Positions 13,303 through 62,859 of a DNA stretch of 64,000 nt are shown one piece after another. The notes under the pieces are model-generated. The model searched no databases. It saw only the letters and a program-made list of their open reading frames with translations, and was not told the origin of the DNA. Made by a program: the position numbers and the translations under genes. The stretch's first letter is position 1. Every line of letters starts with the position of its first letter. Source of the stretch: Thermoplasmata archaeon. Its GTDB lineage: Archaea; Thermoplasmatota; Thermoplasmata; Lutacidiplasmatales; UBA184. Where the stretch lies: assembly GCA_030037855.1 (NCBI GenBank), contig JASHPY010000077.1, positions 2,035-66,034 of the forward strand, read 5' to 3'.

Positions 13303-14142
13303 ATGCCGGAGTCGCCGCGCGGCGCCGACTGGGCCCGGGCGGACCCGCTCCGGGGGAAGTCCGGGATCGTGACCGGGGCGGGCTTCGGGATCGGGCAGGC
13401 GATCGCCGTGCGCCTCGCCGAGCTCGGCGCGAACGTCGGCGTCGGCTACTGGAAGCACGAGGAAGGGGCGCGGTCGACCGCGGAGAGCGTCGCCGCCCAC
13501 GGAGGTCGCTCGGTGCTCCTGCCCGCCGACCTCGGCTCCGAGGACGAGGTCCGGAAGCTGGTCGCGCGGGCGGCGCGGGAACTCGGGTCGGTCGATTTCC
13601 TCGTCAACAACGCCGGGGGCCCGGGCGGCGCTGCGACGGACAACCCGATCGACCAGGCGAGCTTCGAGGACTTCAATCGGCTCCTCGCGTCGAACCTCGG
13701 TGCGGCGTTCCTCTGCAGCCGGTACGCCGCCCCGCTCATGCTGAAACGGAAGGCGGGCCGAATCGTCAACATCTCCTCGATCTGCGGGATCACGGGCGAT
13801 TGCGGACCGGCCTACTGCGCCGCCAAGGCCGGGATCCTCGGACTGACCCGCCACTCCGCGGTCGCGCTCGCTCCCTACGTTCAGGTGAACGCGATCCTGC
13901 CGGGATTCGTCGACTCCGCTCCGCACGCGTCCGACAAGGTCGAGCGGATCACTCCGGGGCGAACGATGGGCCGCCCGAGCGACGTCGCGGACCTGGTCGC
14001 GTACCTCGTCGCCGCACCCCAGCGGTTCCTGACCGGAGCCTGCATCGTCATGGACGGGAGCGTGACGAACGGCGTGATCGGCCGGATCATGGACTGGGAC
14101 GACGCGCGGGACGCCGCGGAACGGGGCGTCAGCTCTTCGTGA
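13303..14142 (+). CDS. SDR family oxidoreductase (FabG-like)
   Basis: Rossmann TGAGFGIGQAIA, NNAG, catalytic YCAAKAG. Confidence 0.85.
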   Translation: MPESPRGADWARADPLRGKSGIVTGAGFGIGQAIAVRLAELGANVGVGYWKHEEGARSTAESVAAHGGRSVLLPADLGSEDEVRKLVARAARELGSVDFLVNNAGGPGGAATDNPIDQASFEDFNRLLASNLGAAFLCSRYAAPLMLKRKAGRIVNISSICGITGDCGPAYCAAKAGILGLTRHSAVALAPYVQVNAILPGFVDSAPHASDKVERITPGRTMGRPSDVADLVAYLVAAPQRFLTGACIVMDGSVTNGVIGRIMDWDDARDAAERGVSSS

Positions 14143-46632: not shown

Positions 46633-46783
46633 GGATCCCCATCTTCCGGGCGATCTCCGACTTCTCGGGGTCGATCACGACAAGGTAGCCCTGCCACTCG
46701 CGCGAGACCTCCCCGCCGCATCGGGGACACTTCGCCTGGTCGGTGATCGTGTTGCAGTTCTTGCACGCCTTGAGGTTGATCAT
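46598..46783 (-). CDS. spt4: transcription elongation factor Spt4
   Basis: 61 aa with a CKNC...CPRCGG zinc ribbon, then EWQGYLVVIDPEKSEIA. Overlaps rpoE by 4 nt. Confidence 0.85.
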   Translation of the reverse strand: MINLKACKNCNTITDQAKCPRCGGEVSREWQGYLVVIDPEKSEIARKMGIHAAGRYALRVK

Positions 46784-47439
46784 GTCGACTCCGCCGGCGC
46801 CGGTGCCGCCGGCTTCGCGGTCGCGGCGACCGGCTTCGGGGGGACGCGCTTCCCAGCCGGCGGACCGCTCTTCTTCCCGCCCTTCTCCTCGGTGCGCTTG
46901 TGCAGCTCCTGGATCCACTCGAGGCGTCCGAGCGCCGGCTGGCGCATCGTGAGCCCGATGCGGCTGTCGCGCGGCGAGATCTCGGAGAGCGAGAGCGAGA
47001 CAACCCGCGCACGGACCTTGTAGCCGACCTTGAGGTCCTTCTTCGACTCGACGCCGACGAGCCGCTGGTTGTGCTCGTCGATGTTGACGCGGTCGTCCAT
47101 GATCTGGGAGACGTGGAGCAGTCCGTCGAGCGGCCCGAATCGGACGAACGCCCCGAACTTCCGGATCTCGACGACCGAGCCCTCGACGACCTCCTGGATC
47201 TCAGGGCGGAAGAGGAGCGCCTGGTACTCCACTTCCTGATAGACCCCGCCGTCGCCGTGGATGATGTGGCCCTCGCCGAGCGGCTTCACGTCGCGGATCG
47301 TCACGGCGAGGTTCTGCCCGTCCACGAGCTTCCCCTCGAACTGCTGCTGGGCGAGCTCGGTGAGGACGTTCGAGAGCTCGGGGCCGAGCCGCTCCGGCGG
47401 GATGCGGACGACGTCGCGACGGTGGTCCAGGTAGTACAT
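46780..47439 (-). CDS. rpoE: DNA-directed RNA polymerase subunit E (Rpo7/Rpb7 homologue) with S1 domain
   Basis: MYYLDHRRDVVRIPPERLG N-terminus and an S1 fold (GSVVEIRKFGAFVRFGPLDGLLHVSQI). It is the 3' 219 aa of a stop-free 1162-aa ORF. Confidence 0.85.
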   Translation of the reverse strand: MYYLDHRRDVVRIPPERLGPELSNVLTELAQQQFEGKLVDGQNLAVTIRDVKPLGEGHIIHGDGGVYQEVEYQALLFRPEIQEVVEGSVVEIRKFGAFVRFGPLDGLLHVSQIMDDRVNIDEHNQRLVGVESKKDLKVGYKVRARVVSLSLSEISPRDSRIGLTMRQPALGRLEWIQELHKRTEEKGGKKSGPPAGKRVPPKPVAATAKPAAPAPAEST

Positions 47440-47460
47440 TCGCCGCGCGCGAGCGGGACG

Positions 47461-47474
47461 GTCTATAAGATAAT
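47461..47474 (-). promoter_or_regulatory. TATA-like element (AATTATCTTATAGA, minus strand) about 29 nt upstream of rpoE ATG
   Basis: AT island in GC-rich DNA. Spacing fits a leaderless transcript. Confidence 0.4.
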
Positions 47475-47504
47475 TGGGGTCTCGGAAAGTGGAGCGGCCG
47501 GTCG

Positions 47505-48527
47505 TCAGGCACGCGAGAGGCCGAGCGCGCGGTCCGTCCTCGCGATCGAAGCGGGCCCGTCGGGTGCGAGGTCGAACATCGCCCGGATCGCGTCGACGTT
47601 CTCGGGGACCGTCACCGACTCCTGGTGGATCGCCTGGAAGAAATAGGCGTCCCGTCCCTCGAGGCTCACCCCGTCCTCCCAGACGACGTTCTCGGGCACG
47701 TCGTCGAGACCGAGCCCGCGGCCCCGGGCGAACTCCATCACCTGCGGCGTTCCGTTCGCCTGCTCCCACGGCGCGAAGACGCGGAACCGGGGCGTGGAGC
47801 GGAGCGCCGCGACGAGCTCGGCGGCGCTCGCTGGCGCCGACCGCAGGCGAACGTGATTGACGTGCACGTGCATCAGGGTCGTGGGCACGACGACCGCGAC
47901 GGTCGAGATCTCGAGATCGGGGAAGATCGTTCGGACGTCCGGCCCGTGATGGGACGGGATGTGGAGCGACGGCACGATGCCGTTGATCGGCCCCTTCTTC
48001 GACTCGGCGGGGTCGGCCGCCCGTCGCACGAGCGTGACGTCCCAGCGCTCGACGCCCCACCGGGGGAGGAGGACCGCGACGGCCCGCGAGATGCCGGTGG
48101 TGTTGCAGGAGACGACCCGCACGCGGCGTTTCCCGCGCGCGGCCGCGTAGTTCCCGAGCGCGTTGAAGGAGACGTCGGCGACCGACGCCTTCTCTCCTCC
48201 CTGAAAGACGGCCCGGACGTTCGCGGCATCGTAGAGCGCACGGTTCTCCGCCCCGACTTTGTCCGGCGTCGCGTCCACGACCACGTCCGCGCGCGCGACC
48301 ATCTCCTTCACCGTCCCGGCGACCTGGAGCCCCGCCGCGTCGAAGTCGGACCGTACCGCGTCGGCGGCCAGATAGAGCGGATAGCCGAGGTCGACCGCGC
48401 GACGCGCGTCGAAGCTCGGGCGGGTCTTCGCCACCCCGACGAGCTCGAGGTCCGGCTGCTTCGCGACCGCGTCCGCTACGCGCTTGCCGATCGTCCCGTA
48501 GCCGTTGACCGCCACGCGAACCCGCAC
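47505..48527 (-). CDS. gap: archaeal type II glyceraldehyde-3-phosphate dehydrogenase
   Basis: VAVNGYGTIGKRVADA N-terminus and catalytic SCNTTG. About 340 aa. Confidence 0.9.
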   Translation of the reverse strand: MRVRVAVNGYGTIGKRVADAVAKQPDLELVGVAKTRPSFDARRAVDLGYPLYLAADAVRSDFDAAGLQVAGTVKEMVARADVVVDATPDKVGAENRALYDAANVRAVFQGGEKASVADVSFNALGNYAAARGKRRVRVVSCNTTGISRAVAVLLPRWGVERWDVTLVRRAADPAESKKGPINGIVPSLHIPSHHGPDVRTIFPDLEISTVAVVVPTTLMHVHVNHVRLRSAPASAAELVAALRSTPRFRVFAPWEQANGTPQVMEFARGRGLGLDDVPENVVWEDGVSLEGRDAYFFQAIHQESVTVPENVDAIRAMFDLAPDGPASIARTDRALGLSRA

Positions 48528-48642
48528 GACGACCGAGCCTCGGCCGCTCCGAGCGGCGGCCGGGATAAAGGCGTTCCTCGGGCGCGGTCCGGACGCGGGG
48601 CACTATCCTTAATCCCCGCGCCGCCGTCGCCGCGGGACCCCC

Positions 48643-49833
48643 ATGGAGTTCCGGCTCAACGACGAGGAGGCGGCGTTCCAGGCCGCGGTCCGCAAGTTCG
48701 GGGACCGCGTCCTTCGCACCCACGAGCGCCAGATCGACGCCGACGGGCGGATACCGGACGACGTGCTGCACGCGATGGCGGAGCTCGGGCTCCTCGCGAT
48801 GCCGGTCCCGACCGAGTACGGGGGGATCGGCGCCTCCGCGGTGCTCACCGAGCTCGCGGCCGAGGAGGTCGGACGCGGTGACTTCTCGATGGCGACCGCG
48901 GTGTTCTTTCTGCTCGAGGCCGGTTGGGGCTACCTGCTCTCCCGTCACGGCACGGAGGCGGCGAAGCGCGAGGTGCTGCCCCCCGTGTGCCGGGGGGAAG
49001 CGTTCCTCGGGATCGCCACGACCGAACCGACCGGTGGAAGCGACCTCGCGGGCCTCAAGACCACCTCTCGCCGGGACGGGGCGAAGTTCGTCCTGCACGG
49101 CGAGAAGGCGTTCGTCTCGGGCGTCGAAGAGGCGAAGCGGCTGGGCGGCGGCCACCTGACGCTGTCGAAATCGCCGGCCGGCGGGTTCAACTTCCTCTAC
49201 GTCCCGACGCGCTCGAGCGGCGTCACGACCCAACGGTTCGAGAACATGGGCCGGATGGGGATCTCGACCGGCGGGCTCACCTACGCGGACGTGGCCGTCC
49301 CCGATCGGTATCTCGTCGGCTCGGAAGGGAAAGGGTTCGAATGCGCGATGGAAGGGTTCTCGGTCGCGCGGACGTTCGTGAGCGCGGCGTGCATCGGCGC
49401 CGCCGAGCGGGCGCTCGAGACCGGGATGAAGTATATCCGGGAGCGGACCGCCTTCGGCCAGCCGCTCGGGAAGTTCGAGGCGATCCAGTTCGAGCTGGTC
49501 GACCTCTGGGCCCAGGTCGAAGCGGTGAAGTGGCAGTGCCGCCGGGCGGCGTGGCTGCTCGACACCTACACCATGAAGGGGGACCGCTCCCACCGCTCGG
49601 AAGTCGACCTCGCGGTCGCGAGCGTCAAGCTCACGGCGCCGCCGATCGCGTTCGAGTGCGTGAAGCGCGTGATGATGTGGTTCGGCGCCGCGGGGTACAC
49701 GAAGGACGTCGGGCTCGAGCTCGGGCTCCGCGGGATCATGTCGTACCTGGTCGGTGCGGAGGGGGGCCTGAACATCATGCGGATCATCCTCGGCCGGGAG
49801 CTCCTCGGGAAGGAGTTCCTCCCGTACAAGTGA
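48643..49833 (+). CDS. acyl-CoA dehydrogenase family protein
   Basis: ACAD N/M/C domains: TEPTGGSD, catalytic region, C-terminal four-helix bundle. Confidence 0.85.
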   Translation: MEFRLNDEEAAFQAAVRKFGDRVLRTHERQIDADGRIPDDVLHAMAELGLLAMPVPTEYGGIGASAVLTELAAEEVGRGDFSMATAVFFLLEAGWGYLLSRHGTEAAKREVLPPVCRGEAFLGIATTEPTGGSDLAGLKTTSRRDGAKFVLHGEKAFVSGVEEAKRLGGGHLTLSKSPAGGFNFLYVPTRSSGVTTQRFENMGRMGISTGGLTYADVAVPDRYLVGSEGKGFECAMEGFSVARTFVSAACIGAAERALETGMKYIRERTAFGQPLGKFEAIQFELVDLWAQVEAVKWQCRRAAWLLDTYTMKGDRSHRSEVDLAVASVKLTAPPIAFECVKRVMMWFGAAGYTKDVGLELGLRGIMSYLVGAEGGLNIMRIILGRELLGKEFLPYK

Positions 49834-49840
49834 GCGGGCG

Positions 49841-50914
49841 ATGAGGACGGGGGCCCGGCGCCGGTCGCCGCCGGTCCGGGAACGCGAGTTCCACGAGCGG
49901 CTCGCCCGCGCGCTTCCCGCCGGACGCGGGGGCCTCCTCCCGCTCGGAGACGACGCGACCGCGCTCCGCCCTCCCCCCGGACGCGTGGCGGTCGTCTCGA
50001 CGGACACGCTGGTCGAGGGCACGCACTTCCTGCCGTCGTCGCCGCCGCAGCGGATCGGCGCGGCCGCGACCGGCGTCAGCCTCTCCGACGTCGCGGCGAA
50101 GGGGGCGACGCCGGACGCGATCCTCCTCGCGCTGGTCCTGCCGGTCGGCACGCCGCAGGCCTGGGCCGAGGCGGTCGTCCTCGGTGCCGAACGGTTCGGG
50201 GCCCGGTTCGGCGCGCACGTCGTCGGCGGGGACACGAAGCCCGGCCCCGTGCGCGCGGTCGTCAGCACCGTGCTCGGCTGGGGTCGGGCCGGTCAGCTCG
50301 CCCCCCGGACGGGGGCGCGACCCGGGGACGTCCTCGTGACGACCGGAGAGGTCGGGCGTGGGGGCCTCGCAGCCGCCCGCCTCGCCGCGGGCGGCGTCCG
50401 CGGGCGACGGGCCGTGGTCGACCTCCTGGACGTGCGGCCGCGCGTCCGCGAAGGGATCGCGCTCGCCCCGATCGCTCGCGCCCTGATCGACACCTCGGAC
50501 GGGATTGCCGAGGCGGCGCGGCTCCTGGCCCGCGCGAGCCGGGCTCGGGTCGTCGTCGAGGAGGCGCGGCTACCGTACGCCCGGGAGCTCGAGCAGGTAG
50601 CTTCGACCCCGGGGCGACGACGCGCGGTGGCGTTCTACGGCGGCGACTACGAGCTGCTCGCGGCCGTCCCGCGGCGCGCGCTCCCGCGGGCGGTCGCGGC
50701 GGTCCGGCGGGCCGGGGGGCAGATCACCGTCGTCGGTCGGGTCGAACGGGGTCGCGGGGCGTGGATCGAGACCCTCCGACGGCGCCTCCCGATGCCCGAA
50801 CCGGGCTGGCAGCCGTTCGGGTCGAGCTCGAGCCGCGTCGCGGGAGGCACGACGGTTCGTCCGTTGTCGAAAGGCGTGCGCCACCGTCGCAAGGTTCGCG
50901 CTACGCTCAAGTAG
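49841..50914 (+). CDS. thiL: thiamine-monophosphate kinase-like (AIR synthase-related PurM superfamily)
   Basis: VVSTDTLVEGTHF and HVVGGDT motifs. Confidence 0.6.
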   Translation: MRTGARRRSPPVREREFHERLARALPAGRGGLLPLGDDATALRPPPGRVAVVSTDTLVEGTHFLPSSPPQRIGAAATGVSLSDVAAKGATPDAILLALVLPVGTPQAWAEAVVLGAERFGARFGAHVVGGDTKPGPVRAVVSTVLGWGRAGQLAPRTGARPGDVLVTTGEVGRGGLAAARLAAGGVRGRRAVVDLLDVRPRVREGIALAPIARALIDTSDGIAEAARLLARASRARVVVEEARLPYARELEQVASTPGRRRAVAFYGGDYELLAAVPRRALPRAVAAVRRAGGQITVVGRVERGRGAWIETLRRRLPMPEPGWQPFGSSSSRVAGGTTVRPLSKGVRHRRKVRATLK

Positions 50915-50953
50915 GGGTTCCCGGGTCCCCGCGCTACCCGCGAGGGGCCCACC

Positions 50954-52210
50954 ATGGCAAACACCTCTATCAATCCGTTTGAGACGGCGAAGCAACAGGT
51001 CGATATCGTCGCGGAGCTGATCGGGATCAACGACGGCGTCCGCGAGGTGCTGAAGCACCCGAAGCGAGAGCTCGCGGTCAACTTCCCGGTCCGGATGGAC
51101 GATGGTTCCTACCGCGTCTACACCGGCTACCGCGTCCAGTACAACATGGCGCGCGGCCCGACCAAGGGCGGGGTCCGCTACCATCCGCAGGTGACGCTCG
51201 ACGAGGTGCGGGCGCTCGCGGCCTGGATGACGTGGAAGTGCGCGGTCGTCGACATCCCGTACGGGGGCGCGAAGGGCGGGGTGGTCTGCGACCCGAAGCA
51301 CATGTCCCGCGAGGAGCTCGAGCGCCTCACGCGGCGCTACGCGTCCGAGATCGCTCCGATCATCGGTCCCGAGATGGACATCCCCGCCCCGGACGTCTAC
51401 ACGGACAGCCAGACGATGGCGTGGATCATGGACACCTACTCGATGCTGAAGGGCTACTCGGTCCCGGGCGTGGTCACGGGTAAGCCGATCAGCCTCGGAG
51501 GCAGCGAAGGGCGGGGCGAGGCGACCGGGCGCGGGTGCGCCTACGTGATCCGCGAGGCCGCGAAGGACCTCGGGCTCAAGGTGAAGGGGGCGCCCGTCGC
51601 CATCCAGGGTTTCGGGAACGCAGGGAGCGTCGCCGCGAACATCCTGAACGACGAGCAGGGCGCGAAGATCGTCGCGGTCTCGGATTCGAAGGGCGGGATC
51701 TACAAGGCGGACGGGCTGAACCCGCACACGGTCGAGGAGCACAAGGCGAAGACCGGATCGGTCGTCGGATTCCCCGGCGCGAAGTCGATCTCGAACGACG
51801 AGGTCCTCGAAGCGAAGGCCGACATCCTCGTGCCCGCCGCGCTCGAGAACCAGATCACGAAGAAGAACGCCGACAAGATCCAGGCGAAGATCGTCGCGGA
51901 GGCGGCGAACGGTCCGACGCTGCCCGAGGCGGACGCGATCCTCTTCGAGAAGAAGGTCACGGTCCTCCCCGACGTTCTCGCGAACGCCGGCGGCGTGACC
52001 GTCAGCTATTTCGAGTGGGCGCAGGACATCCAGGGCTACTTCTGGGCGCTCGACGAGGTCAACACCCGGCTCGAGCGCACGATGGTCCGCTCCTACAACG
52101 CGGTCCACAAGGTCGCGACCGAGCGCAAGGTCCACAACCGCACGGCCGCGTACGTCGTCGCGATCCAGCGGGTCGTGGACGCGATCAAGATCCGGGGCAT
52201 CTACCCGTAA
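50954..52210 (+). CDS. gdhA: glutamate dehydrogenase
   Basis: GGAKGG catalytic loop and GFGNAGS dinucleotide-binding motif. 418 aa. Confidence 0.9.
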   Translation: MANTSINPFETAKQQVDIVAELIGINDGVREVLKHPKRELAVNFPVRMDDGSYRVYTGYRVQYNMARGPTKGGVRYHPQVTLDEVRALAAWMTWKCAVVDIPYGGAKGGVVCDPKHMSREELERLTRRYASEIAPIIGPEMDIPAPDVYTDSQTMAWIMDTYSMLKGYSVPGVVTGKPISLGGSEGRGEATGRGCAYVIREAAKDLGLKVKGAPVAIQGFGNAGSVAANILNDEQGAKIVAVSDSKGGIYKADGLNPHTVEEHKAKTGSVVGFPGAKSISNDEVLEAKADILVPAALENQITKKNADKIQAKIVAEAANGPTLPEADAILFEKKVTVLPDVLANAGGVTVSYFEWAQDIQGYFWALDEVNTRLERTMVRSYNAVHKVATERKVHNRTAAYVVAIQRVVDAIKIRGIYP

Positions 52211-52235
52211 GGCGCGCGGGCACGGCGAGGGTCGG

Positions 52236-52850
52236 ATGGCGGACCTTCCCCGGTGCCGCCGCGCGACCTGGGCGGACGTCGACGGCTGGGCGGACCGCGT
52301 GGCCGCGAAGGTGCAGGAACGGGCGGCGACGCCGACCACGATCGTCGGGCTCACGCGCGGCGGCTGGGTGCCGGCCCGGCTCCTCGCCGACCGTCTCGGA
52401 GTGAAGCGCCTCGTCTCGCTCCGGGCGCAGCACTGGGGGATCACGGCGACCCCGACCGGCGCCGCCGAGATCACGGAGGGGCTGAGCGGGCCGATCGTCG
52501 GCGAGCACGTGCTCGTCGTCGACGACATCACCGACACCGGCGAGAGCCTCGGCCTCGCGGTCGAGCACGTGCGCGCGAAAGCTCCGCGCCGGGTCGAGAG
52601 CGCGACGTTCCTGCACATCACGCGCTCGAAGCTCGAACCGACCTACTACGCCGAGGCGATCCCGCGGGACGCCTGGGTCTGGGTCGTCTTCCCGTGGAAC
52701 TACTGGGAGGACCTCACGACCCTCGCGGCGCGCGCGGCCGCGGGGACCCCGGGAATCGACCCGGTGCGCGCGACCCTCCTCGCGCGATGCGGGCTCGACG
52801 TTCCGCGGGTCGACCTCGAACGGGTCGCTCGGACCGTCCCGCTCGGCTGA
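52236..52850 (+). CDS. phosphoribosyltransferase (purine PRTase type I) domain protein
   Basis: PRPP-binding motif VLVVDDITDTGESL. Confidence 0.7.
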   Translation: MADLPRCRRATWADVDGWADRVAAKVQERAATPTTIVGLTRGGWVPARLLADRLGVKRLVSLRAQHWGITATPTGAAEITEGLSGPIVGEHVLVVDDITDTGESLGLAVEHVRAKAPRRVESATFLHITRSKLEPTYYAEAIPRDAWVWVVFPWNYWEDLTTLAARAAAGTPGIDPVRATLLARCGLDVPRVDLERVARTVPLG

Positions 52851-54081: not shown

Positions 54082-55509
54082 ATGACCGACCTCCCCGACA
54101 AGACGACCGCGTTCATGGACTGGTACCTCGCGGTCGTCGAGGCCGCGAACCTCACCGACAAGCGCTACCCGGTGAAGGGGCTGAACGTCTGGACCGCCTA
54201 CGGTTTCCGGGCGCGACGGAACCTGGACGCCGTGCTCGTGCGGGAGATCGAGGCGACCGGTTCCGAGGCGGTCGAGTTCCCGGCGCTGATCCCGGCAACC
54301 GAGTTCGCGAAGGAGAAGGAGCACATCAAGGGGTTCGATGCCGAGGTCTACTGGGTCACGAAGGGTGGCCTGTCGGACCTCGATGTTCCGCTCGTGCTCC
54401 GGCCCACGAGCGAGACCGCGATGTACCCGGTGTTCGCGCTGTGGATCCGTTCGCACCGGGACCTGCCGCTCAACGTCTACCAGATCGTCAACTCGTTCCG
54501 CTACGAGACGAAGACGACCCGCCCGTTCGTCCGCGTTCGGGAGATCCACTTCTTCGAAGAGCACACGTGCCAGGCGAACGAGGCGCACGCGACCGAGCGC
54601 GTGCGCTCGAACCTCGGGGCGTTCCGCAAGATGGCCGACGCGTTCGCCCTACCGTACCTCGCGATCCGCCGGCCCGACTGGGACAAGTTTCCCGGCGCGT
54701 TCTACACGGTCGCGCTCGACAGCCCCCTCGGCGGGGCGCGCACGCTCCAGCTCGGAAGCATCCATCACTACCGCGAGAACTTCTCGCGGCCGTACGCGAT
54801 CCAGTACGAGGCGGCCGACGGAAGCCAGCAGTTCGTCCACCAGACGACGTTCGGCCTCTCCGAGCGGCTGCTCGGCGCGATCGTCGCGGTCCACGGGGAC
54901 GCGAAGGGCGCGGTCTTCTCGAGCGCGATCGCCCCCTACCAGGTCGTCGTGATCCCGATCCTCGGGAGCGACGTCGGGGAGGCGCCGCTCCGGGTCGCCG
55001 AGGACGTCGCAGCGCGGCTCCGCCGTCACGGATACCGCGCCCATCTGGACGCCGGCGACGACCGCCCCGGCGCGAAGTTCTACCGTTGGGAGCAGGCCGG
55101 CGTTCCGCTGCGGCTCGAGGTCGGGCGGCGGGAGGCCGAGGCGCGGAGCGCGACGTCCGTGGATCGGCTCGGAACGAAGGGGCGCGTGGCGCTCGACCGG
55201 CTCGAGGGAGAGGTAGCGGACCGGCTCGCGGAGTTCGACCGCGCGCTGCGCGCGCGGGCGGACGCCGCGTTCGCCGCGTCGTTCTCGGTCGCCCGTTCGC
55301 TCGCCGAGCTCGCGGGCTCGACCCGCGTCCGGATCGTCGCGTGGTGCGGCAGCGAGGCGTGCGGCCATCAGATCGAGAGCGGGATCGATGGAGCGCTCCT
55401 CGGCACGCCCGAGGATGCGCTGCCGATCGATCCCGGAGCGCCCGGACCGTGCATCGGCTGCGGCGGGACCGAATCGACCCGTTGGGCGCTCGCGGGCCAG
55501 CCGCTCTGA
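54082..55509 (+). CDS. proS: proline--tRNA ligase, archaeal/eukaryotic type
   Basis: Class II aaRS motifs. N-terminus FMDWYLAVVEAANLTDKRYPVKG and C-terminal zinc-binding CGSEACGH...CIGCGG. Start at Met41 of ORF 53962..55509. Confidence 0.9.
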   Translation: MTDLPDKTTAFMDWYLAVVEAANLTDKRYPVKGLNVWTAYGFRARRNLDAVLVREIEATGSEAVEFPALIPATEFAKEKEHIKGFDAEVYWVTKGGLSDLDVPLVLRPTSETAMYPVFALWIRSHRDLPLNVYQIVNSFRYETKTTRPFVRVREIHFFEEHTCQANEAHATERVRSNLGAFRKMADAFALPYLAIRRPDWDKFPGAFYTVALDSPLGGARTLQLGSIHHYRENFSRPYAIQYEAADGSQQFVHQTTFGLSERLLGAIVAVHGDAKGAVFSSAIAPYQVVVIPILGSDVGEAPLRVAEDVAARLRRHGYRAHLDAGDDRPGAKFYRWEQAGVPLRLEVGRREAEARSATSVDRLGTKGRVALDRLEGEVADRLAEFDRALRARADAAFAASFSVARSLAELAGSTRVRIVAWCGSEACGHQIESGIDGALLGTPEDALPIDPGAPGPCIGCGGTESTRWALAGQPL

Positions 55510-55525
55510 CGGACGGACGCGCGCC

Positions 55526-55792
55526 CTACGTCGAGGGCGGGATCGGAACCGGAGGATTCGGCAGGACGAGCCACATCCCCGAGAGCCCGAAGAGGAGCAA
55601 GGTGATCACGACCGCGTAGACCCCGTTGTCGAGCCACACGCCGAACGCCACCCCCCACCACACGTAGAACGCGACCGCGAGAACGACCAGCGACGCGAAC
55701 CCCCAGAACGAGACGCGGCGCACGAGCGACATCTCGCGGAGCCGTACCGGCTCGGGCGCCGGTTCGGGTGCGGAGGGCGGGTCGGTCGCCAT
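55526..55792 (-). CDS. hypothetical small membrane protein
   Basis: Two hydrophobic helices. Pro-rich termini. Confidence 0.35.
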   Translation of the reverse strand: MATDPPSAPEPAPEPVRLREMSLVRRVSFWGFASLVVLAVAFYVWWGVAFGVWLDNGVYAVVITLLLFGLSGMWLVLPNPPVPIPPST

Positions 55793-55911
55793 CGAGGGTC
55801 GATGACCCGGACCTCGTTAAATAACCCTTGCGGAGCCGCGCGCGGTCCCCGAACGGGCCGGAGCGGGACCGGCCAAATTCTTAACCGATACCCCGGGCTA
55901 GAACCGTCCCG

Positions 55912-57492
55912 ATGCCGGAGGCGCCCGTCCCCGAGGAGCCGAAGCGGGAGGACACCTCCCGCTTCGAGCGGCTTTCGCCCGACCAGCACCGCATCCTCGC
56001 CTACGCGAGCTCGATCGGTTCCGAGTTCGATTTCCCGCTCCTGGCGAACGCGATGGGGGTGGAGGAGGAGTGGCTCGCGGAGCATCTCGAGCGCCTCGTC
56101 CATCTCGGGGTGCTGCGCGAGCGGACCGGCGGCGACCGGTTCGCGTTCGCCACGGAGGAGTTCCGAGCGCGGGTCTATCGCTCGCTGACCGAGAGCCGTC
56201 TGCGGGTACTGCACCGGAAGATCGCGGAAGCGATGCAGCGAATGTACCCCACCGCCCCGGCCGAGGTCGTCGCCGAGCTCGGACGTCACTACTTCCTCGG
56301 AAAGGTCCCCGAGAAGTCCCGCCTGTACAACCGGCTCGCCTCCGAGAACGCCCGAGCGGCCGACGACCCGGAGTCGGCCGTACACTATCTCGAACGGGTC
56401 CGCGTCGACCTCGAGTCGATCCCCGGGGACCACCGCCACGAGCTCGCGGAGATCGACGAGGCGCTCGGCGAGCTCTGCTTCTCGACCGGAAACTTCGCCG
56501 AGGCGGACCGGTACTTCACCGCGGCGCTCGAGCGCCTCGGCAGCGACGAGCCACGGATCCGGGGCCGCTTACTGCTCGCGCGCGGCGAGGTCGCCCGGGA
56601 GAAGCTCGACGTCGAGAGCGCGACCCGCCAGGCGCTCGACGCCCAGCGCCTGTTCGAGGCGACCGACGACCGACTGGGGCGCGCGCAGACCTACCGGCTC
56701 CTCGGCCGGGTCGCGTTCCACCGCGGCCACTACCGCGAGGCGCTCGACGAGAGCATGCGCTCCCTCGACGCGCTCGGGGACCTCCGCGACCCCCGCCTGA
56801 TCGGCGAGCTGTCGATCGACATCGGGAACTCGTTCGCGCTGCTCGGGCCCGAGGTCAACCAGGAGGCGATCGCGTGGTACGAGCGGGCGATCGACCGGTT
56901 GACCCAGGCCGGCGAATGGGTCGAGCTCTCGCGCGCCTACCACAATCTCGGGGTCTCGCTCGGCGAGCGACGGCCGGAGGACGGGCTCGAGCAGCTCGAG
57001 CGCGCCCGGGAGATGGGGGACCGCGCGCACGACCCCCGGTCGGTCGGCCGGGCGCTCCTCTCGGGCGTGGAGTTCCGGCTCGGCCTCGGCCAGTTCGAGG
57101 AGGCGGCGCGGGACAACGAGCAGGCCGGCCGGCTCCTGGAGCGGCTCGACGACGTCCTCGGTCTCGAACAGGTCGAGGTGAACCGGGGCCAGATCGCGGA
57201 GAAGCGGGGCCAGTGGGACGACGCCGAGCGGGCGTACGAGAAGGCGCTGGCGGCGTGCCACCGGTTCCACCTGCGCGCCGACGAGGCGGAGGTCCACTAC
57301 TACCTCGCCCGGCTCCGGTTCAAGACCCGAAACCTGGAGGCGGCCCGCCACGAGCTCAGGGCCGCCGACAACCTCGACCTCACCGACCTACGTCCCGCAC
57401 TGGCCCCCCAGGTCGCGGAGCTGCGACGCCAGCTCGAGGAGCAGGTCGCGCCCGGTGCGTCCGGCCCCGCGGAGCCCGCCCCGCCGTCCTAA
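55912..57492 (+). CDS. TPR-repeat protein (NTPase-less paralogue of the downstream STAND protein)
   Basis: N-terminal winged-helix-like block LSPDQHRILAYASSIGSEFDFPLLA, then more than 8 TPR-like units. It parallels the C-terminal half of the next gene. Confidence 0.65.
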   Translation: MPEAPVPEEPKREDTSRFERLSPDQHRILAYASSIGSEFDFPLLANAMGVEEEWLAEHLERLVHLGVLRERTGGDRFAFATEEFRARVYRSLTESRLRVLHRKIAEAMQRMYPTAPAEVVAELGRHYFLGKVPEKSRLYNRLASENARAADDPESAVHYLERVRVDLESIPGDHRHELAEIDEALGELCFSTGNFAEADRYFTAALERLGSDEPRIRGRLLLARGEVAREKLDVESATRQALDAQRLFEATDDRLGRAQTYRLLGRVAFHRGHYREALDESMRSLDALGDLRDPRLIGELSIDIGNSFALLGPEVNQEAIAWYERAIDRLTQAGEWVELSRAYHNLGVSLGERRPEDGLEQLERAREMGDRAHDPRSVGRALLSGVEFRLGLGQFEEAARDNEQAGRLLERLDDVLGLEQVEVNRGQIAEKRGQWDDAERAYEKALAACHRFHLRADEAEVHYYLARLRFKTRNLEAARHELRAADNLDLTDLRPALAPQVAELRRQLEEQVAPGASGPAEPAPPS

Positions 57493-57537
57493 AGCCGTAG
57501 CCGGGATGTACTCACCGAGGCGGCACCGCGCGGGATC

Positions 57538-59961
57538 ATGTCCGGGTCCGATCCATCGCGGGGGGCGGCCGTGCCTCCGATATTCGGGCGGGGCGAGGCG
57601 GTGATCGAGGTCGGGCGCACGCTCGACCGCGCCCGCGCGGGAGCGGGTGAGGGGCTCCTCCTGTCGGGAGACGACGGGGCCGGGAAGAGCCTGTTCCTTC
57701 GGACGGCGGCCCAGCGCGCCCGCCACCAGGGTTTCCGGGTACTGATCGGCCGGGCCCTCCCCGAGGAGATCCCGCAGCCGTTCTCGCTGCTGCGCGACCT
57801 CGTGCGCCCATCCGATCGGTCCTCCCGCGGCGAGCGCTCGGGCGCCGGCCCTCCGGTGTCGCTCCCCGGATTCCTGCTGACCGTGGACGGCGAAGCCGGG
57901 GGCGGGACCCGCCCGCCCGCCGACGCCGGCGAGCCGACCCCGGTGTCCGAGGGTCTCGCGACCATGCTCGCGCCGATGGACAGCCCCGGTGACTGGGTCG
58001 GAACGGTCCGTCAAGAGCTCTACGCGAACCTCGTGCAGTACCTCGCCGAACGCGCGGTCGACGAGCCGCTTTTGGTCGCGATCGACGACCTCCACTTCGC
58101 GGACGCGGCGTCGATCGAGTTCCTCAGCCGGCTCGCCACCGAGCTCGGCCACCTTCCGATCGCGATGGTCGCGACCGTGGCGACCGGCACGCGGATTCCT
58201 GCCGGGGTCCGCGAGCTCATCGAGTCGCTCGCCCGCTCGACCACGGTGCGCACGGTGGCGCTCCGGCCGCTGAGCGCGGCGGAGGTGGCGGAGTTCGCGA
58301 AGTGGGTCCGTCGGGGGATCCCGGCCGATGCGGCCGACGTGCTCCGCTGGCACGCCCAGACCGACGGGAACCCGCTCTTCGTCGAGCAGCTCGTCCGCTC
58401 GACCACGGGGGTCGGGACCCGGCCCGAGCTCGAGACGACCGGCGGCACCGCGGGCCTCCACGAGATCCTCCTCGCGCGGGTCCGCGCGCTCGGCGAGACG
58501 GAGCGGCGGACCCTGACCTACGCCGCGCTCCTCGGGAAGGAGTTCGCCTTCTCGAACCTGGCCGCGATCTCCGAGATGGACGAGGAGCGTGTGACCGAGA
58601 CGCTCGACCGCCTGGTCGCGGGCGGCCTCCTACGGGAGAAGGGGGACGAGGTCTTGGAGTTCGTGACGGAGGGCGTGCGGGCCGGGGTCTACGCCGAGCT
58701 CACCGAGACCCGTCGCCGGATCCTCCATCGGCGCGTCGGGCGGTCGCTCGAGGAGAAGCGCCTCGCCGGCGACTCCGAACTCGCGCGCCAGTTCTACCTT
58801 GGCCGCGACGACGCGAAGGCAGCCGAGTACAACCTCCGGGCCGGCACGAGCGCGATGCGCGGGTTCGCGTTCGAGACCGCCGTGCCGCACCTCGAGCGGG
58901 CGCTCGAGGCGGAGCGGCGGCGATCCGACCGGAGCCCCGCCCGCGAGGTCCGGATCCTCGTCGACCTGGGCCGGTCGTTCGACGAGCTCGGCGACCTCCA
59001 CCGGTCGGAGGTCGCGCTCTCGGACGCGGTCCTGCTCGCGCGGACCCGACCCGAGCTCGACCCCGAGCTCGGTCGGGCGCTCCTCGCCCTGGCCCAGACC
59101 CGCCAGGACCAGAGCGAGTACCCGAGCGCGCAGGCGCTCGCCGAGGAGGCCTACGGCCGGCTCGAACGGGGCGGCGCGCCCCGCGAGCTGATGACCGCCC
59201 ACCGCGTCCTCGGGATCGTCGGCTGGCGACTCGGCCGCCTCGCGGACGCCGAGCGGCACCTTCGGCTCGCGCTCGAGATCGCCGAGAACGAAGGCACCGC
59301 GGTCGAGCGAGGGCACGCGATGGTGGACGTCGCGAACACGATGCTGCTCCGAGACGGGGCGCAGTTCGGTCAGGCGCTCGATCTCTACGAGCGGGCGGCC
59401 GAGCTGTTCGGCTCCGGGCAGGACCTCGCCGCGCGGGCGCGCGTGCTGATGAACCGGGCGGTGCTGCTCTACTCCTCGGGACGCCGTGAGGACGGCCTCG
59501 CGGGATTGGACCTCGCGATCGACGCCGCGGAGCGGTCGCGCTCGCCGGTCTGGATCGGCTACTGCTACCTCAACCTCGCGCTCATGCAGGCGGAGCTCGG
59601 GAACCCGGAACGGGCCCGGCCGGCGCTCGAGCGCGCCGACGGGCTCCTCACCCCCCTCGGGGACCGGCTCGCGCCCGAGCAGCTCGCGCTCGCGCGCGGG
59701 CTGCTCGCCGAGGCCGAGCGCGACTACGACCGGGCCGAGGGTCACCTCGCGGACGCGCTCCACCAGGCTCGGGAGCTGAACGCGGAGCCCGAGGTCTCGG
59801 AGATCCTCTTTCGGCTCGCCCACGTGGCCCTCGCCCGCGGCGACCGGGCCGGGGCCCGCGCGAAGCTCGCCCAGGCCCGGGCCGCCGGGCTCGACGCGAA
59901 CCGCAGCGACCTCGCCACGCGGGTCGCCGAGCTCGATTCGGCGCTCGCGAAGCCGGATTGA
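57538..59961 (+). CDS. STAND-type P-loop NTPase (AAA_16-like) with winged-helix and TPR repeats
   Basis: Walker A GDDGAGKS and Walker B LLVAIDDLHFAD. WH block TLTYAALLGKEFAFSNLAAI. C-terminal TPR array. Confidence 0.75.
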   Translation: MSGSDPSRGAAVPPIFGRGEAVIEVGRTLDRARAGAGEGLLLSGDDGAGKSLFLRTAAQRARHQGFRVLIGRALPEEIPQPFSLLRDLVRPSDRSSRGERSGAGPPVSLPGFLLTVDGEAGGGTRPPADAGEPTPVSEGLATMLAPMDSPGDWVGTVRQELYANLVQYLAERAVDEPLLVAIDDLHFADAASIEFLSRLATELGHLPIAMVATVATGTRIPAGVRELIESLARSTTVRTVALRPLSAAEVAEFAKWVRRGIPADAADVLRWHAQTDGNPLFVEQLVRSTTGVGTRPELETTGGTAGLHEILLARVRALGETERRTLTYAALLGKEFAFSNLAAISEMDEERVTETLDRLVAGGLLREKGDEVLEFVTEGVRAGVYAELTETRRRILHRRVGRSLEEKRLAGDSELARQFYLGRDDAKAAEYNLRAGTSAMRGFAFETAVPHLERALEAERRRSDRSPAREVRILVDLGRSFDELGDLHRSEVALSDAVLLARTRPELDPELGRALLALAQTRQDQSEYPSAQALAEEAYGRLERGGAPRELMTAHRVLGIVGWRLGRLADAERHLRLALEIAENEGTAVERGHAMVDVANTMLLRDGAQFGQALDLYERAAELFGSGQDLAARARVLMNRAVLLYSSGRREDGLAGLDLAIDAAERSRSPVWIGYCYLNLALMQAELGNPERARPALERADGLLTPLGDRLAPEQLALARGLLAEAERDYDRAEGHLADALHQARELNAEPEVSEILFRLAHVALARGDRAGARAKLAQARAAGLDANRSDLATRVAELDSALAKPD

Positions 59962-60000
59962 CCCCCGGAGTTTTAGCGCCCTCCGCGGTCGGCGGCGTCG

Positions 60001-60825
60001 ATGGCGGGGGTCCGCGGCGACTCGTACGCGACCCGGGATGGCTCGCCGCTGCCCGACCGGAGCGACCCCGGGTTCGAACGCGACGTGCGCCGAATGTTCA
60101 GCCACATCGCCCGGCGGTACGAATGGTTCGACCACGTCGCGTCGCTGGGGAGCGACCTACTTTGGCGCCCCCGCGCGCTCTGGGACCTCGACCGGTTCCG
60201 GCCCCCCGGACCGGTCGAGCGAGTGCTGGACCTCGGGTGCGGGACCGGGGAGCTGACCCGCCTCACCGCCCGCCGGTTCCCCTCGGCGACCGTCGTCGGG
60301 CTCGACTTCACGGCCGCGATGCTCGCGGTCGCCCGTCGCCGCGCCGACTCCGGCGCGACCCGCGTCGCCTACGCCCGAGGGACCGCGATGCGACTGCCGT
60401 TCGCCGACGGAGTGTTCGACCTCGTCACGAACGCGTTCCTCGTCCGGAACCTGGTCGACCTCGAAGCGGCGCTGCGCGAGATGCACCGGGTGCTCCGACC
60501 GGGCGGGGTCCTCCTGATCCTCGAGATCACCGAGCCGGTCGCACCCGCGTTCGGTGCGCTCTTCCACGCGTACTTCGACCACGTCGTTCCTTGGCTCGGC
60601 GCCGCGATCGACAGCGCGGGGCCGTACCGCTACCTTCCCGAGTCGCTCCGCCGGCTCCCCCCGCGGCCCGCCTTCCGCGCCGCGCTCGAGCACGCGGGGT
60701 TCGCTCGCGCGGAGCTTCGGACGCAGTCCGGGGGGATCGTCACGGCGTTCCTTGCGGAGGCCGGCGGCGCCACCGAGCCCCGACCGCCTACCCTACGTCG
60801 TCCGGCCGCCGCGGCCGGACCATAG
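60001..60825 (+). CDS. ubiE: UbiE/MenG-type class I SAM-dependent methyltransferase (demethylmenaquinone methyltransferase-like)
   Basis: VRRMFSHIARRYEWFDHVASLG N-terminus characteristic of UbiE/MenG. Motif I VLDLGCGTG. Confidence 0.75.
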   Translation: MAGVRGDSYATRDGSPLPDRSDPGFERDVRRMFSHIARRYEWFDHVASLGSDLLWRPRALWDLDRFRPPGPVERVLDLGCGTGELTRLTARRFPSATVVGLDFTAAMLAVARRRADSGATRVAYARGTAMRLPFADGVFDLVTNAFLVRNLVDLEAALREMHRVLRPGGVLLILEITEPVAPAFGALFHAYFDHVVPWLGAAIDSAGPYRYLPESLRRLPPRPAFRAALEHAGFARAELRTQSGGIVTAFLAEAGGATEPRPPTLRRPAAAAGP

Positions 60826-60868
60826 CCGTTAAGTCGCTCCGCGCCCCGCTAGGAGTCCGAGGAGAGCG

Positions 60869-61984
60869 ATGCCGTTCGACCCGTTCCGATACGCCCACCA
60901 GCATCGGAACGAGATCGCGTGGCTGAGCCAGAACACGAACCATCTCGTGCCACCGGAGGTGATCGGGCCCGCGCTCGCGGAGGCGATCCGGGAGCGACGC
61001 TACGAGGGGTATCCGTACGGCCCCGGCGATCCCGAGCTCCTGGACCTCGTCGCGCGGGACTTCGGGCTTCCCGGTCAGCGCCCGTTCCTCACCGCCGGCG
61101 GGACCGAATCGCTTTACATGATCACGCGCGCGCTGCTCGCGGCCGGCGACGAGGTCGTCGCCTCCGACCCGAGCTATCTCATCATCCACCGGTTCGTCGA
61201 GCTCTCGGGCGCGCGGACGAAGAACCTCGACATCTACGCGCCGCCGTACCGGCTGACCGCGGAGCGGGTCCGGGAGGCGATCGGACCGAAGACCCGCATG
61301 ATCCTCCTGATCGACCCCTTGAACCCGCTCGGCTCGGGGTACCCGCGCGAGGAGGTCCGCGCGATCGCCGAGATCGCGCACGACCATCACCTCCTCTTGC
61401 TCAACGACGTGACGTACCGCGACTTCGCGGACGCGCCGGCCCTCGCCGCGGAGTACGCCCCCGAGTCGACGATCACGGTGTGGTCGGTCTCGAAGAACTG
61501 CGGGATCGCGGGGCTCCGGATCGGCGGATTCCTCGCGCCCCCCGAGCTCCTCGGCACGATCGCCCGGTTCAACACGAACGACCTCGGCGTGAACGTGCTG
61601 GCCCAGGTCGCGGCGATCGCCGCGCTCGGAACGAAGGGCGACTGGTTCGCCGCGGTGCGCCGGCAGACCCGCGAGAACGGCGCGCGGATCCGCGCGTGCG
61701 TCGACGGCGTCCCGGGCACGTCCCTTCCCGTCTACCCGTCGCAGGCGAACATGATGGTGATCGACGTCGCCCGTCTCGGGCTCTCCCCCGAGGCGCTGCA
61801 GCAGGAGCTGCTCGAGCGCCACGGCGTGTTCGTCCGGGCGGGGAACTACCTGTCGCCCGCGCACGGGAAGAAGTTCGTCCGCGTCTCGTTCTCGAACCCG
61901 CCGCGGGACATCGACCGGTTCGTCGCCGCATTCCCCGAAGCGGTCCGCGCGGTCGCGCACGGCGTCATCGCCCCCGCGGCCTAG
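60869..61984 (+). CDS. pyridoxal phosphate-dependent aminotransferase (class I/II)
   Basis: PLP-lysine region SVSKNCGIAGLRIG. About 370 aa. Confidence 0.8.
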   Translation: MPFDPFRYAHQHRNEIAWLSQNTNHLVPPEVIGPALAEAIRERRYEGYPYGPGDPELLDLVARDFGLPGQRPFLTAGGTESLYMITRALLAAGDEVVASDPSYLIIHRFVELSGARTKNLDIYAPPYRLTAERVREAIGPKTRMILLIDPLNPLGSGYPREEVRAIAEIAHDHHLLLLNDVTYRDFADAPALAAEYAPESTITVWSVSKNCGIAGLRIGGFLAPPELLGTIARFNTNDLGVNVLAQVAAIAALGTKGDWFAAVRRQTRENGARIRACVDGVPGTSLPVYPSQANMMVIDVARLGLSPEALQQELLERHGVFVRAGNYLSPAHGKKFVRVSFSNPPRDIDRFVAAFPEAVRAVAHGVIAPAA

Positions 61985-62859
61985 GGTCGTGGCCGGGCGC
62001 GAACGTCGACGACGACGTGGGCGCGCCCCGGTCCGTACGGCTTGACCTCGCGGGCGAGCGGCGCCCCGATCACGTCCGCCCTGGCCGCCCGCACGCTCTC
62101 GACCGTCCGCTCGACCGCGCGCTCGAGCGCCGGCCGGGCGTCCTCGACCGTGTGCACATGGAGCCAGCCGCCCGAGGGGCGAAGCAGCGGGACGGCCCGG
62201 GGGATCCACGGCGTCGCGTCCGGCAGGTAGCCGAGGAAGACCCGGTCCGCGTGCTCCGGGGCGATCGCGACAGAGCGGTTGTCCCCGAGGCGGCCATCCA
62301 CCCGGTCCCCGACCCCGTTCCGGGCCGCGTTCTCGAGCAGGTAACGATACGCGATCGGGTTCTTCTCGACCGCGACCACCCGGGCGGCCGAGCCTCGGAC
62401 CGCGGCGGGGATCGCGAAGTAGCCGATCCCCGCGAAGAGGTCGACGACCTCCTCGCCCGGACGCACGAGGTCCCCCGCGCGTCGGCGTTCGGTCCGGTTC
62501 CCCGCGGCGAACATGACCTCCGCCGCGTCGAACCGCCAACGGACCCCGTGCTCGACGACCTCGGTCTCGGTGGTCTCGCCCGCGATCCGCTCGACCCGGG
62601 GGCGTCGCAGCTCCCCTTCGACGGGGCCGACCTGCGTGATCACGGTCGCGACGCCGAGCTCTTCCTGCCACGCGCGACCGAGCAGCGGAAAGTACGGACG
62701 CAGCCGGTCGGGGAGTCGGAGCCGGAGGACGCGGCCGAGTCGCTGGTAACCGCTCGGCATGCCGGCGGCGAGCTCGTCCCCCGCGACCGCGCGGAGGCGC
62801 TCGCGCACCCGCTCGGCGGGAGGCCGTCGGGGCCCCCGCACGCTCGCGGGCGGTGACAT
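61981..62859 (-). CDS. tRNA (guanine37-N1)-methyltransferase Trm5/Met-10+ like family
   Basis: VVDLFAGIGYFAIPAA SAM motif, NPIAYRYLLENAARN, DRVFLGYLP. Start at Met37 of ORF 61981..62967. Confidence 0.7.
   Translation of the reverse strand: MSPPASVRGPRRPPAERVRERLRAVAGDELAAGMPSGYQRLGRVLRLRLPDRLRPYFPLLGRAWQEELGVATVITQVGPVEGELRRPRVERIAGETTETEVVEHGVRWRFDAAEVMFAAGNRTERRRAGDLVRPGEEVVDLFAGIGYFAIPAAVRGSAARVVAVEKNPIAYRYLLENAARNGVGDRVDGRLGDNRSVAIAPEHADRVFLGYLPDATPWIPRAVPLLRPSGGWLHVHTVEDARPALERAVERTVESVRAARADVIGAPLAREVKPYGPGRAHVVVDVRARPRP

Follow-up and report, generated by a model that had tools for sequence, protein, structure and literature searches.

Introduction

The usual description of a STAND or NLR switch is of one polypeptide with an effector of its own. 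The bacterial regulator MalT is restrained by the unrelated proteins MalY, MalK and Aes and not by a truncated paralogue, and Avs proteins carry effector domains and sit in variable defence contexts. In the resting state of a STAND, the winged-helix domain (WHD) and the arm clamp the nucleotide-binding domain (NBD) (PMC6468293). The sensors of Avs proteins can be shared or shuffled among families (PMC13581612), and the plant protein NRG1C, an N-terminally truncated helper NLR encoded beside NRG1A/B, antagonises its neighbours (bioRxiv 10.1101/2021.01.27.428547). For prokaryotic STANDs, we found no description of NTPase-less paralogues consisting of a WHD, an arm and tetratricopeptide repeats (TPR) in the open-access literature. 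Here we analyse two adjacent genes at positions 55,912 to 59,961 of a 64,000-nucleotide stretch of contig JASHPY010000077.1 from a Thermoplasmata archaeon (the window; G+C ~70% throughout), of which gene 1 encodes a protein of exactly this kind and gene 2 a full STAND ATPase. There is good evidence that both genes belong to an archaeal branch of the AAA_16 STAND ATPases that lacks effectors, and that they diverged from each other long ago; in bacteria this clade, again with good support, includes the MalT/LAL, AfsR/SARP and PknK-type regulators.

Results

Domain organisation of gene 2

Each of the two open reading frames (ORFs) is preceded by an in-frame stop and begins at the next start codon, which rules out an N-terminal extension. 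Both, together with the motifs GDDGAGKS and DDLHFAD, had been reported in an initial annotation made from the sequence; all are present and their coordinates are right. No third paralogue of gene 1 or gene 2 occurs in the 64-kb window. The genes and the domains of their products are the following.

55912–57492, + strand: gene 1, ORF of 526 aa, NTPase-less winged-helix–arm–TPR protein of the g1-type subfamily
55948–56190, + strand: gene 1 WHD (aa 13–93), homologous to the WHD of the STAND NOD module
56191–56421, + strand: gene 1 arm-like helical hairpins (aa 94–170), limits drawn by analogy with PH0952 (PMC6468293)
56422–57447, + strand: gene 1 TPR array (aa 171–512), Pfam TPR_12 at E 5e-22
57538–59961, + strand: gene 2, ORF of 807 aa with AAA_16 and TPR matches, effector-less STAND ATPase of the order NBD, helical domain (HD), WHD, arm and TPR, g2-type subfamily
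57568–58272, + strand: gene 2 NBD (aa 11–245), with Pfam AAA_16 at aa 15–208
57667–57690, + strand: gene 2 Walker A motif GDDGAGKS (aa 44–51)
57811–58005, + strand: gene 2 variable insert in the NBD (aa 92–156), predicted to be disordered (predicted local distance difference test, pLDDT, < 50)
57946–57981, + strand: gene 2 insert motif DLERxLAP[LM][DG] (aa 137–148; alignment A1)
58069–58089, + strand: gene 2 Walker B motif (VAIDD), whose D183 and D184 fall in DDLHFAD
58273–58410, + strand: gene 2 HD (aa 246–291), with the GxP motif as GNP at 58366–58374
58456–58704, + strand: gene 2 WHD (aa 307–389), a winged helix in the AlphaFold2 (AF2) model
58705–59949, + strand: gene 2 arm (aa 390–465) followed by the TPR sensor array (aa 466–804), with Pfam TPR_12 and TPR_MalT matches and helical hairpins in the AF2 model

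The AAA_16 match of gene 2 has an E-value of 3e-15 (57.4 bits against a cutoff of 32.6) and is accompanied by matches to TPR_12 and TPR_MalT. Across 72 orthologues, residues G44, G47, G49 and K50 of Walker A, D183 and D184 of Walker B, and G277, N278 and P279 of the HD are invariant, the last three forming the GxP motif as defined for STANDs (PMC6468293). The AF2 model, built with 72 homologues and confident (mean pLDDT 83), places an α/β NBD and a short HD ahead of a winged helix at aa 320–375 (helix 320–332, strand 335–337, helices 338–344 and 349–361, and strands 365–369 and 372–375), past which helical hairpins continue as far as the C-terminus. Its best fold match in the PDB is 6MFV, the STAND-TPR protein PH0952 (Foldseek E 2e-14). 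Sequence searches of the PDB returned TPR matches only and none for the NOD, and the TPR array has a profile match to bacterial kinesin-light-chain-like TPR (E 1e-8).

The most conserved parts of gene 2 are the WHD and arm (0.62–0.65 mean pairwise identity); over both proteins these two regions reach 0.62–0.67, against 0.43–0.58 for the NBD and TPR regions. The insert in the NBD, 65 residues long, has a mean identity of 0.24, and P146 of its short motif is invariant; the motif could be a candidate linear motif bound by a TPR channel. Thr377, equated by motif alignment and not by structural superposition, occupies the site of the phosphate-contacting histidine in other STANDs, and the orthologues read EF[VT][TS]E there (alignment A1). 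In PH0952 that residue is H382, which contacts the ADP β-phosphate, and the WHD histidine is a feature of STANDs (PMC6468293).

When compared with the definition of a STAND, in which the NOD consists of NBD, HD and WHD (PMC6468293), gene 2 has the NBD, the HD with its GxP motif, the WHD, the arm and the repeat sensor, and it lacks the WHD histidine and a terminal effector domain, the latter being a general, not a universal, feature. The layout leaves ~14 residues ahead of the NBD, and the TPR array extends to the C-terminus. Scans with Pfam, NCBIfam and PADLOC found no effector or DNA-binding domain in either protein, in agreement with the initial annotation, which had seen no output domain. 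Apart from the WHD histidine, gene 2 has every sequence feature of a functional STAND core. That it is a complete switch with intact ATP-binding motifs is a well-supported prediction.

An exhaustive HMMER search with the NOD (gene 2 aa 1–460) retrieved 57,185 cluster representatives at E ≤ 0.001. Past the archaeal proteins of ~800 aa, the closest relatives carry GerE/LuxR, SARP/BTAD, protein-kinase, adenylate-cyclase or XRE-HTH domains, which places the NOD in a signal-transduction clade of the MalT/AfsR/PknK type. Ten archaeal relatives of ~800 aa were tested, and each has AAA_16 and TPR alone, so that the absence of an effector is a trait of the whole archaeal branch and not a truncation in this genome. 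That gene 2 might be an ordinary LuxR regulator cut short here had been raised at the outset; a truncated LuxR/SARP regulator is ruled out by the effector-less architecture of ~800–816 aa that more than 120 orthologues share. An exact-sequence look-up of the gene 2 protein returned no record, and a look-up by cluster yielded neither an accession nor a name.

Domain organisation of gene 1

Gene 1 corresponds exactly to the WHD–arm–sensor part of a STAND: it begins at the WHD, and the NBD and HD are missing. Because it has no NBD, it is not by itself a STAND ATPase. Pfam detects TPR families only. The AF2 model, built with 64 homologues (mean pLDDT 91), shows a winged helix at aa 23–79 (helix 23–35, strand 38–40, helices 41–48 and 52–64, and strands 68–70 and 76–79) followed by hairpins to the C-terminus, and the WHD has the classical helix–strand–helix–helix–strand–strand topology in the models of both proteins. 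At the site of the ADP-contacting histidine gene 1 has Thr81. The WHD and arm are again the most conserved regions (mean pairwise identity of 0.66 and 0.67, against 0.58 for the TPR array), and the arm contains the invariant motifs LTESRLRVLHRK and ELGRHxFLGK (alignment A2). The top Foldseek matches of the TPR array are the TPR superhelices of LGN/Pins (E 1e-10); 6MFV is also among the gene 1 matches, at rank 18. Gene 1 is an intact protein under selection.

Relationship between the two proteins

BLASTP aligns gene 1 aa 16–504 collinearly with gene 2 aa 313–799 at 29% identity (E 1e-31), a similarity well outside what chance would give, and the alignment includes the WHD block, in which the gene 1 WHD pairs with gene 2 aa 313–389. 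This bears out the earlier proposal that gene 1 repeats the WHD block and TPR array of gene 2 without the NTPase. In neighbour-joining (NJ) trees spanning the WHD to the C-terminus, the gene 1 and gene 2 clades were joined in none of 100 bootstraps, and gene 1 grouped with P0286, an AAA_16-TPR protein of 797 aa that is full-length and belongs to a related archaeon found in peat. Gene 1 aligns with P0286 aa 307–733 at 37% identity (E 2e-90) with two gaps, and in a second tree it joined the g1-type subfamily of the related lineage with 98% bootstrap support. The description of the genes as tandem paralogues therefore stands in part: they are adjacent and true paralogues, and they did not arise by local duplication, since the bootstrapped NJ trees and the BLAST scores rule out a recent tandem event. 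The origin of gene 1 as a shortened copy of gene 2, which that description had implied, is likewise not supported, as gene 1 is closer to another STAND subfamily (37% versus 29%).

Conservation, synteny and selection

When genomes were scanned, with each GTDB species represented once, 139 of them had a gene 2 relative, and the best 80 of these were retrieved; loci were located by tblastn with the window genes followed by ORF extraction, and gene 1 was counted over the 77 loci having upstream DNA. The retrieved genomes all bear labels of the Thermoplasmata lineage (78 Thermoplasmata, one Methanobacteriota and one Thermoplasmatota), and their isolate names come mostly from surveys of soil, peat and acid-sulfate soil. 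Gene 2 has hundreds of homologues (800–816 aa, 50–99% identical), which are labelled just as 'Thermoplasmata archaeon' proteins of metagenome-assembled genomes. Gene 1 orthologues of 512–543 aa and 61–100% identity occur in more than 70 genomes, and the mean identity among orthologues is 59% for gene 1 versus 51% for gene 2.

In all but one of the 77 informative loci (76), gene 1 immediately precedes gene 2, with a gap of 3–69 nt (mode 24 nt). In the most divergent retrieved genome (locus L083), gene 2 is in its usual slot and gene 1 is absent from the locus; locus L056 has two tandem copies of gene 1 (6688–8283 and 8372–9973) ahead of gene 2. The gene 2 orthologue of locus L033 (10001–12353), on a long contig of a metagenome-assembled genome, appears interrupted, with a 571-aa ORF and a 753-nt gap past gene 1, which is probably a frameshift or an assembly error and no real truncation. 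The syntenic 5' side consists of genes for ThiL, glutamate dehydrogenase, a phosphoribosyltransferase, DUF373, prolyl-tRNA synthetase (ProRS) and a small membrane protein, and the 3' side of genes for a MenG/UbiE-type methyltransferase, a pyridoxal phosphate (PLP) aminotransferase, Taw2/Trm5, TrmB, fumarase, Alba and aspartyl-tRNA synthetase (AspRS). Against the five nearest genomes, the ratio of nonsynonymous to synonymous substitution rates (dN/dS) was 0.15–0.25 for gene 1 and 0.22–0.32 for gene 2, and ProRS, the methyltransferase and the aminotransferase fell in the same range. These data give good support to the view that the pair is a vertically inherited, single-copy, core chromosomal locus of one soil and peat Thermoplasmata lineage.

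The g1-type subfamily in a related lineage

With P0286 as query, the g1-type subfamily was found in JGI and ENA metagenome assemblies of a related archaeal lineage of ~58% G+C, where it comprises a dozen or so full-length proteins (~760–800 aa) and more than 40 NTPase-less ones (~510 aa), in which the winged helix comes first. Locus L089 (JGI 3300033405, contig Ga0326727_10000748) contains eight tandem NTPase-less genes of ~510 aa at 514–14776, whose products are mutually 58–72% identical, with 0.71–0.77 identity in the WHD and arm versus 0.53 in the C-terminal TPRs; the NTPase-bearing full-length P0392 lies ~11 kb from this array on the same contig. In locus L088 three NTPase-less copies are followed by an 888-aa canonical STAND that retains the FAHAL motif with its histidine. 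Next come the oppositely oriented gene for a small-membrane-protein homologue, a g1-type gene, and the methyltransferase and aminotransferase genes known from the window, so that the g1-type gene fills the slot of gene 1 and gene 2 without a g2-type gene. The full-length P0286 and P0392 are singletons next to large PKD-repeat proteins.

The NBD–HD part of P0286 (aa 1–298) is 76–77% identical to that of P0403 and P0404 (loci compared, L084/L085 and L091), and the WHD–TPR halves of these proteins fall in different clades; NBD–HD and WHD–arm–TPR modules have therefore been swapped at the hinge between HD and WHD. It is well supported that the g1-type proteins form a sister subfamily, in most members of which the NBD and HD are absent and the protein starts at this hinge.

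Transcription signals

A TATA-like element, TCTTAACC in the window (55879–55886) and CACAGTTTTAACC in other genomes, lies 26–34 nt ahead of the gene 1 ATG, and the sequence CTAGAAC lies 8–14 nt ahead of it. Both are conserved in position and sequence over ~40 displayed loci, and this strongly conserved combination occupies the corresponding position in ~70 loci. The former fits an archaeal TFB-recognition element (BRE)/TATA promoter and a putative leaderless mRNA, and CTAGAAC may serve as an initiator or be bound by a regulator. In many genomes the two genes are only 24 nt apart, which leaves no room for a promoter between them, and TATA-like boxes are found in this gap in several lineages. 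The methyltransferase has a TATA-like box of its own.

Neighbouring genes and other features

The flanking features in the window are the following.

55526–55792, − strand: divergent gene for a small protein of 88 aa with two predicted transmembrane helices and without a family match
55878–55904, + strand: promoter-like elements 5' of gene 1, from sequence conservation
60001–60825, + strand: MenG/UbiE-type methyltransferase (TIGR01934, 189 bits, cutoff 158)
60869–61984, + strand: PRK06225-type PLP aminotransferase (NF004870, 403 bits, cutoff 351)

The gene for the 88-aa protein is present at every locus with upstream DNA. A homologue of 44% identity stands directly 5' of the g1-type gene in the distant sister lineage (L088, 9642–9881, − strand), and the conserved motif reads YxWWGxxxGxWLDNGVYAVxITxxLFGLxGM. 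The methyltransferase and aminotransferase genes are always contiguous 3' of STAND-family genes, namely of both genes in the window, of gene 2 only in L083 (12412–14427) and of the g1-type gene only in L088 (11505–13407), where the remaining synteny is lost. The STAND-family genes may be functionally linked to these two enzymes, and with them to quinone or amino-acid metabolism.

No conserved effector gene lies nearby, and what has been inserted to separate the small gene from gene 1 varies by lineage: a GNAT-like gene, an integrase or a response regulator. By locus, L011 (7355–8305) and L022 (4528–5493) have a gene for an uncharacterised protein of 316–321 aa, L065 (6613–7617) an rve-type integrase, and L070 (5591–8243) a membrane protein with a response regulator that has a C-terminal winged helix-turn-helix (wHTH). 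Rfam and DNA-repeat scans of 55300–60200 gave nothing significant, a FinP match at E 0.55 falling well under the gathering score.

Elsewhere in the window, very long ORFs of 600–1160 aa lie antisense to or overlap real genes (46780–50268, 50570–52621 and 60788–62671, all on the − strand, and others). Such ORFs are expected by chance at 70% G+C and are not to be read as genes; at the 3' end of ORF 46780–50268, however, there is a true gene, whose product has an S1-like RNA-binding domain.

Discussion

A possible role for gene 1 in trans

This strongly conserved pair, set among housekeeping genes, looks like a cell-signalling module. From the sequence and its context we tentatively propose that the gene 1 paralogue modulates or partners gene 2 in trans, and that the two may form a module of cellular signalling and not of antiviral defence. 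Like other STAND switches, gene 2 would rest in a closed, ADP-bound form. A ligand would then bind its TPR superhelix, probably a peptide or protein segment; an extended ligand of this kind is likely because both TPR arrays most resemble the peptide-binding superhelix of LGN/Pins. ADP would be swapped for ATP and gene 2 would multimerise, and, as there is no effector domain, the output would have to go through protein–protein contacts. The WHD–arm part of gene 1 would contact gene 2 in trans and, serving as co-sensor, adaptor or brake, would join or restrain the assembly; gene 1 would act at this point because its most conserved part is the one that packs on the NBD in full STANDs.

Several observations weigh against such cooperation. 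The genes occur apart in L083, L088 and L089, so neither strictly needs the other as a neighbour, and P0457, a g2-type sister, and P0403, of a third type, are singletons amid housekeeping genes. Gene 2 retains its own WHD, arm and TPR and so has no need for trans-acting ones. The conserved WHD–arm residues could be structural only, and, as the WHD histidine is replaced by threonine in both proteins, nucleotide handling may differ from that of other STANDs. In a mirror-tree analysis of 31 genomes, the partial correlation between gene 1 and gene 2 was 0.31 (rank 5 of 45), which is no more than some pairs of unrelated neighbours reach, for example DUF373 and gene 1 (0.44). Given the short gap in many genomes and the TATA-like boxes in others, co-transcription of the two genes is no more than plausible.

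Alternative explanations

In the main alternative the genes are neighbours by descent only, the g1-type proteins being autonomous TPR scaffolds or regulators that can do without any NTPase and gene 2 a separate switch that stable synteny has kept adjacent, which we regard as quite possible, though somewhat doubtful. Synteny is not confined to the pair and covers the full 20 kb between ThiL and AspRS; gene 1 is missing from L083, no g2-type gene occupies the slot in L088, and L089 contains g1-type arrays alone; the mirror-tree signal does not exceed background; the TATA-like boxes ahead of gene 2 in several lineages suggest separate transcription; and the paralogues, at 29% identity, are ancient. 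Adjacency in 76 of 77 loci at 3–69 nt, however, has persisted despite rearranged flanks in L070, L045, L053–55, L059 and L061, and the WHD–arm region in which gene 1 is most conserved is the part known to contact an NBD. The winged helices of both proteins raise a different explanation, direct DNA binding as ligand-controlled regulators, for example of the methyltransferase and aminotransferase or of the small membrane-protein gene. Sub-threshold matches to ArsR-type and other wHTH models, the basic helices past the wing (RARVYRSLTESRLRVLHRK), the conserved CTAGAAC beside the gene 1 TATA box, and the retention of the block of small gene, gene 1/gene 2, methyltransferase and aminotransferase over deep divergence all point that way. 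We nevertheless consider it quite unlikely: on inspection of the sequences, both proteins have an acidic helix where a recognition helix would sit (EEEWLAEHLERL and EERVTETLDRL), all wHTH matches are far under their cutoffs, and in all characterised STANDs the WHD is internal to the NOD and a separate effector domain binds DNA (PMC6468293).

The initial annotation had suggested a new signalling or defence pair. A role in antiviral conflict, with gene 2 as an Avs-like STAND, gene 1 as a decoy or extra sensor and the arrays as a diversifying receptor repertoire, would agree with the frequent STAND-TPR architecture of Avs families (PMC13581612), with sister-lineage arrays of 58–72% identical copies that vary most in the C-terminal TPRs and lie near an integrase and a ParE-like gene, and with the shuffling of NBD–HD modules among subfamilies. 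The defence part of that suggestion is not borne out, and we judge it very unlikely, since PADLOC gave no defence match, there is neither an effector domain nor a conserved effector gene close by, the pair is single-copy in a fixed housekeeping position across 139 species-level genomes, its dN/dS equals that of ProRS and other neighbours, and the nearest NOD relatives are regulator-type AAA_16 proteins. That gene 1 is the decaying remnant of a truncated STAND gene is barely conceivable. The catalytic half of the family is indeed missing from it, but its ORF is intact at 512–543 aa in more than 70 genomes and better conserved than gene 2 (59% versus 51%), its dN/dS is 0.15–0.25, it has its own conserved promoter-like element, and its AF2 model is confident; a pseudogene is ruled out by the conservation of gene 1 and its dN/dS.

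A bolder version of the proposed action in trans, which we consider unlikely, is that the g1-type proteins are sensor subunits that plug into the NBD–HD of a shared full-length STAND, giving an archaeal 'split NLR' or sensor–helper network with the HD–WHD hinge as its modular junction. If so, the window would represent the minimal form, with one sensor and one ATPase, and the related lineage an expanded form, with arrays of eight or more sensors and full-length forms rebuilt by NBD–HD swaps.

Comparison with known systems

The locus belongs to an effector-less archaeal branch that includes a strongly conserved subfamily which dropped its ATPase half at the HD–WHD hinge and has stayed under purifying selection; g1-type genes stand beside a full-length relative in one lineage and are tandem-amplified in another. 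Even if the two proteins do not cooperate, they define an uncharacterised and widespread core-genome signalling family of soil and peat Thermoplasmata, and they caution against treating each STAND-TPR gene as a defence gene.

PH0952 from Pyrococcus horikoshii (6MFV) is archaeal and has the same order of NBD, HD, WHD, arm and TPR as gene 2 (PMC6468293). The two share 14% identity; gene 2 has no effector and has threonine instead of histidine, and no NTPase-less partner is described for PH0952. With only ~14 residues ahead of the NBD, gene 2 is not an archaeal STAND transcription factor of the PH0952 kind. The MalT/LAL regulators have, like gene 2, an AAA_16-type NOD followed by a TPR-like sensor, and the closest relatives that are not orthologues include AAA_16-TPR proteins fused to LuxR. 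The expected switch logic would be alike, with ADP/ATP exchange and ligand-induced multimerisation, whereas gene 2 lacks the C-terminal GerE/LuxR HTH of these regulators, as do its more than 120 orthologues, judged by precomputed Pfam lists for 120. The AfsR/SARP and PknK-type proteins belong to the same AAA_16 NOD clade, and BTAD- and kinase-fused relatives are among the NOD matches. NCBIfam gives partial matches to the TPR region of the AfsR/SARP model NF053617, at 49.7 bits against a cutoff of 1430 and on the gene 1 TPRs only, and to the NOD of a TOMM kinase/cyclase fusion protein, at 82.9 against a cutoff of 705.75; the OmpR-type wHTH (Trans_reg_C), BTAD and kinase features of these groups are absent from the window proteins.

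Avs proteins share with gene 2 a STAND NTPase and a TPR-like sensor. The window pair differs in having no effector, a fixed housekeeping context under purifying selection and no match to a PADLOC system, the scan having returned only a generic TPR match and a Csa3 match at E 0.005. The NsdA family of Streptomyces (NF053720) consists of NTPase-less TPR-like regulators and gives weak matches (E 0.0034 and 0.00017); neither protein is a member, because the scores of 17.0 and 21.3 bits, against a cutoff of 75, come from TPR repeats only. Gene 2 is thus placed outside MalT/LAL, AfsR/SARP, PH0952-like proteins, Avs and NsdA, because the defining domain or score tested for each was absent or not reached.

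NRG1C offers a functional analogy for gene 1 as a brake or competitor, although it belongs to eukaryotic immunity and is unrelated in sequence; the TPR arrays of gene 1 and gene 2 are just ~29% identical, which makes competition for one ligand less likely. If the two archaeal proteins do cooperate, they would correspond, in a prokaryote and outside immunity, to the truncated or paired NLRs of plants, and would offer a simple two-gene system for studying control of a STAND core in trans.

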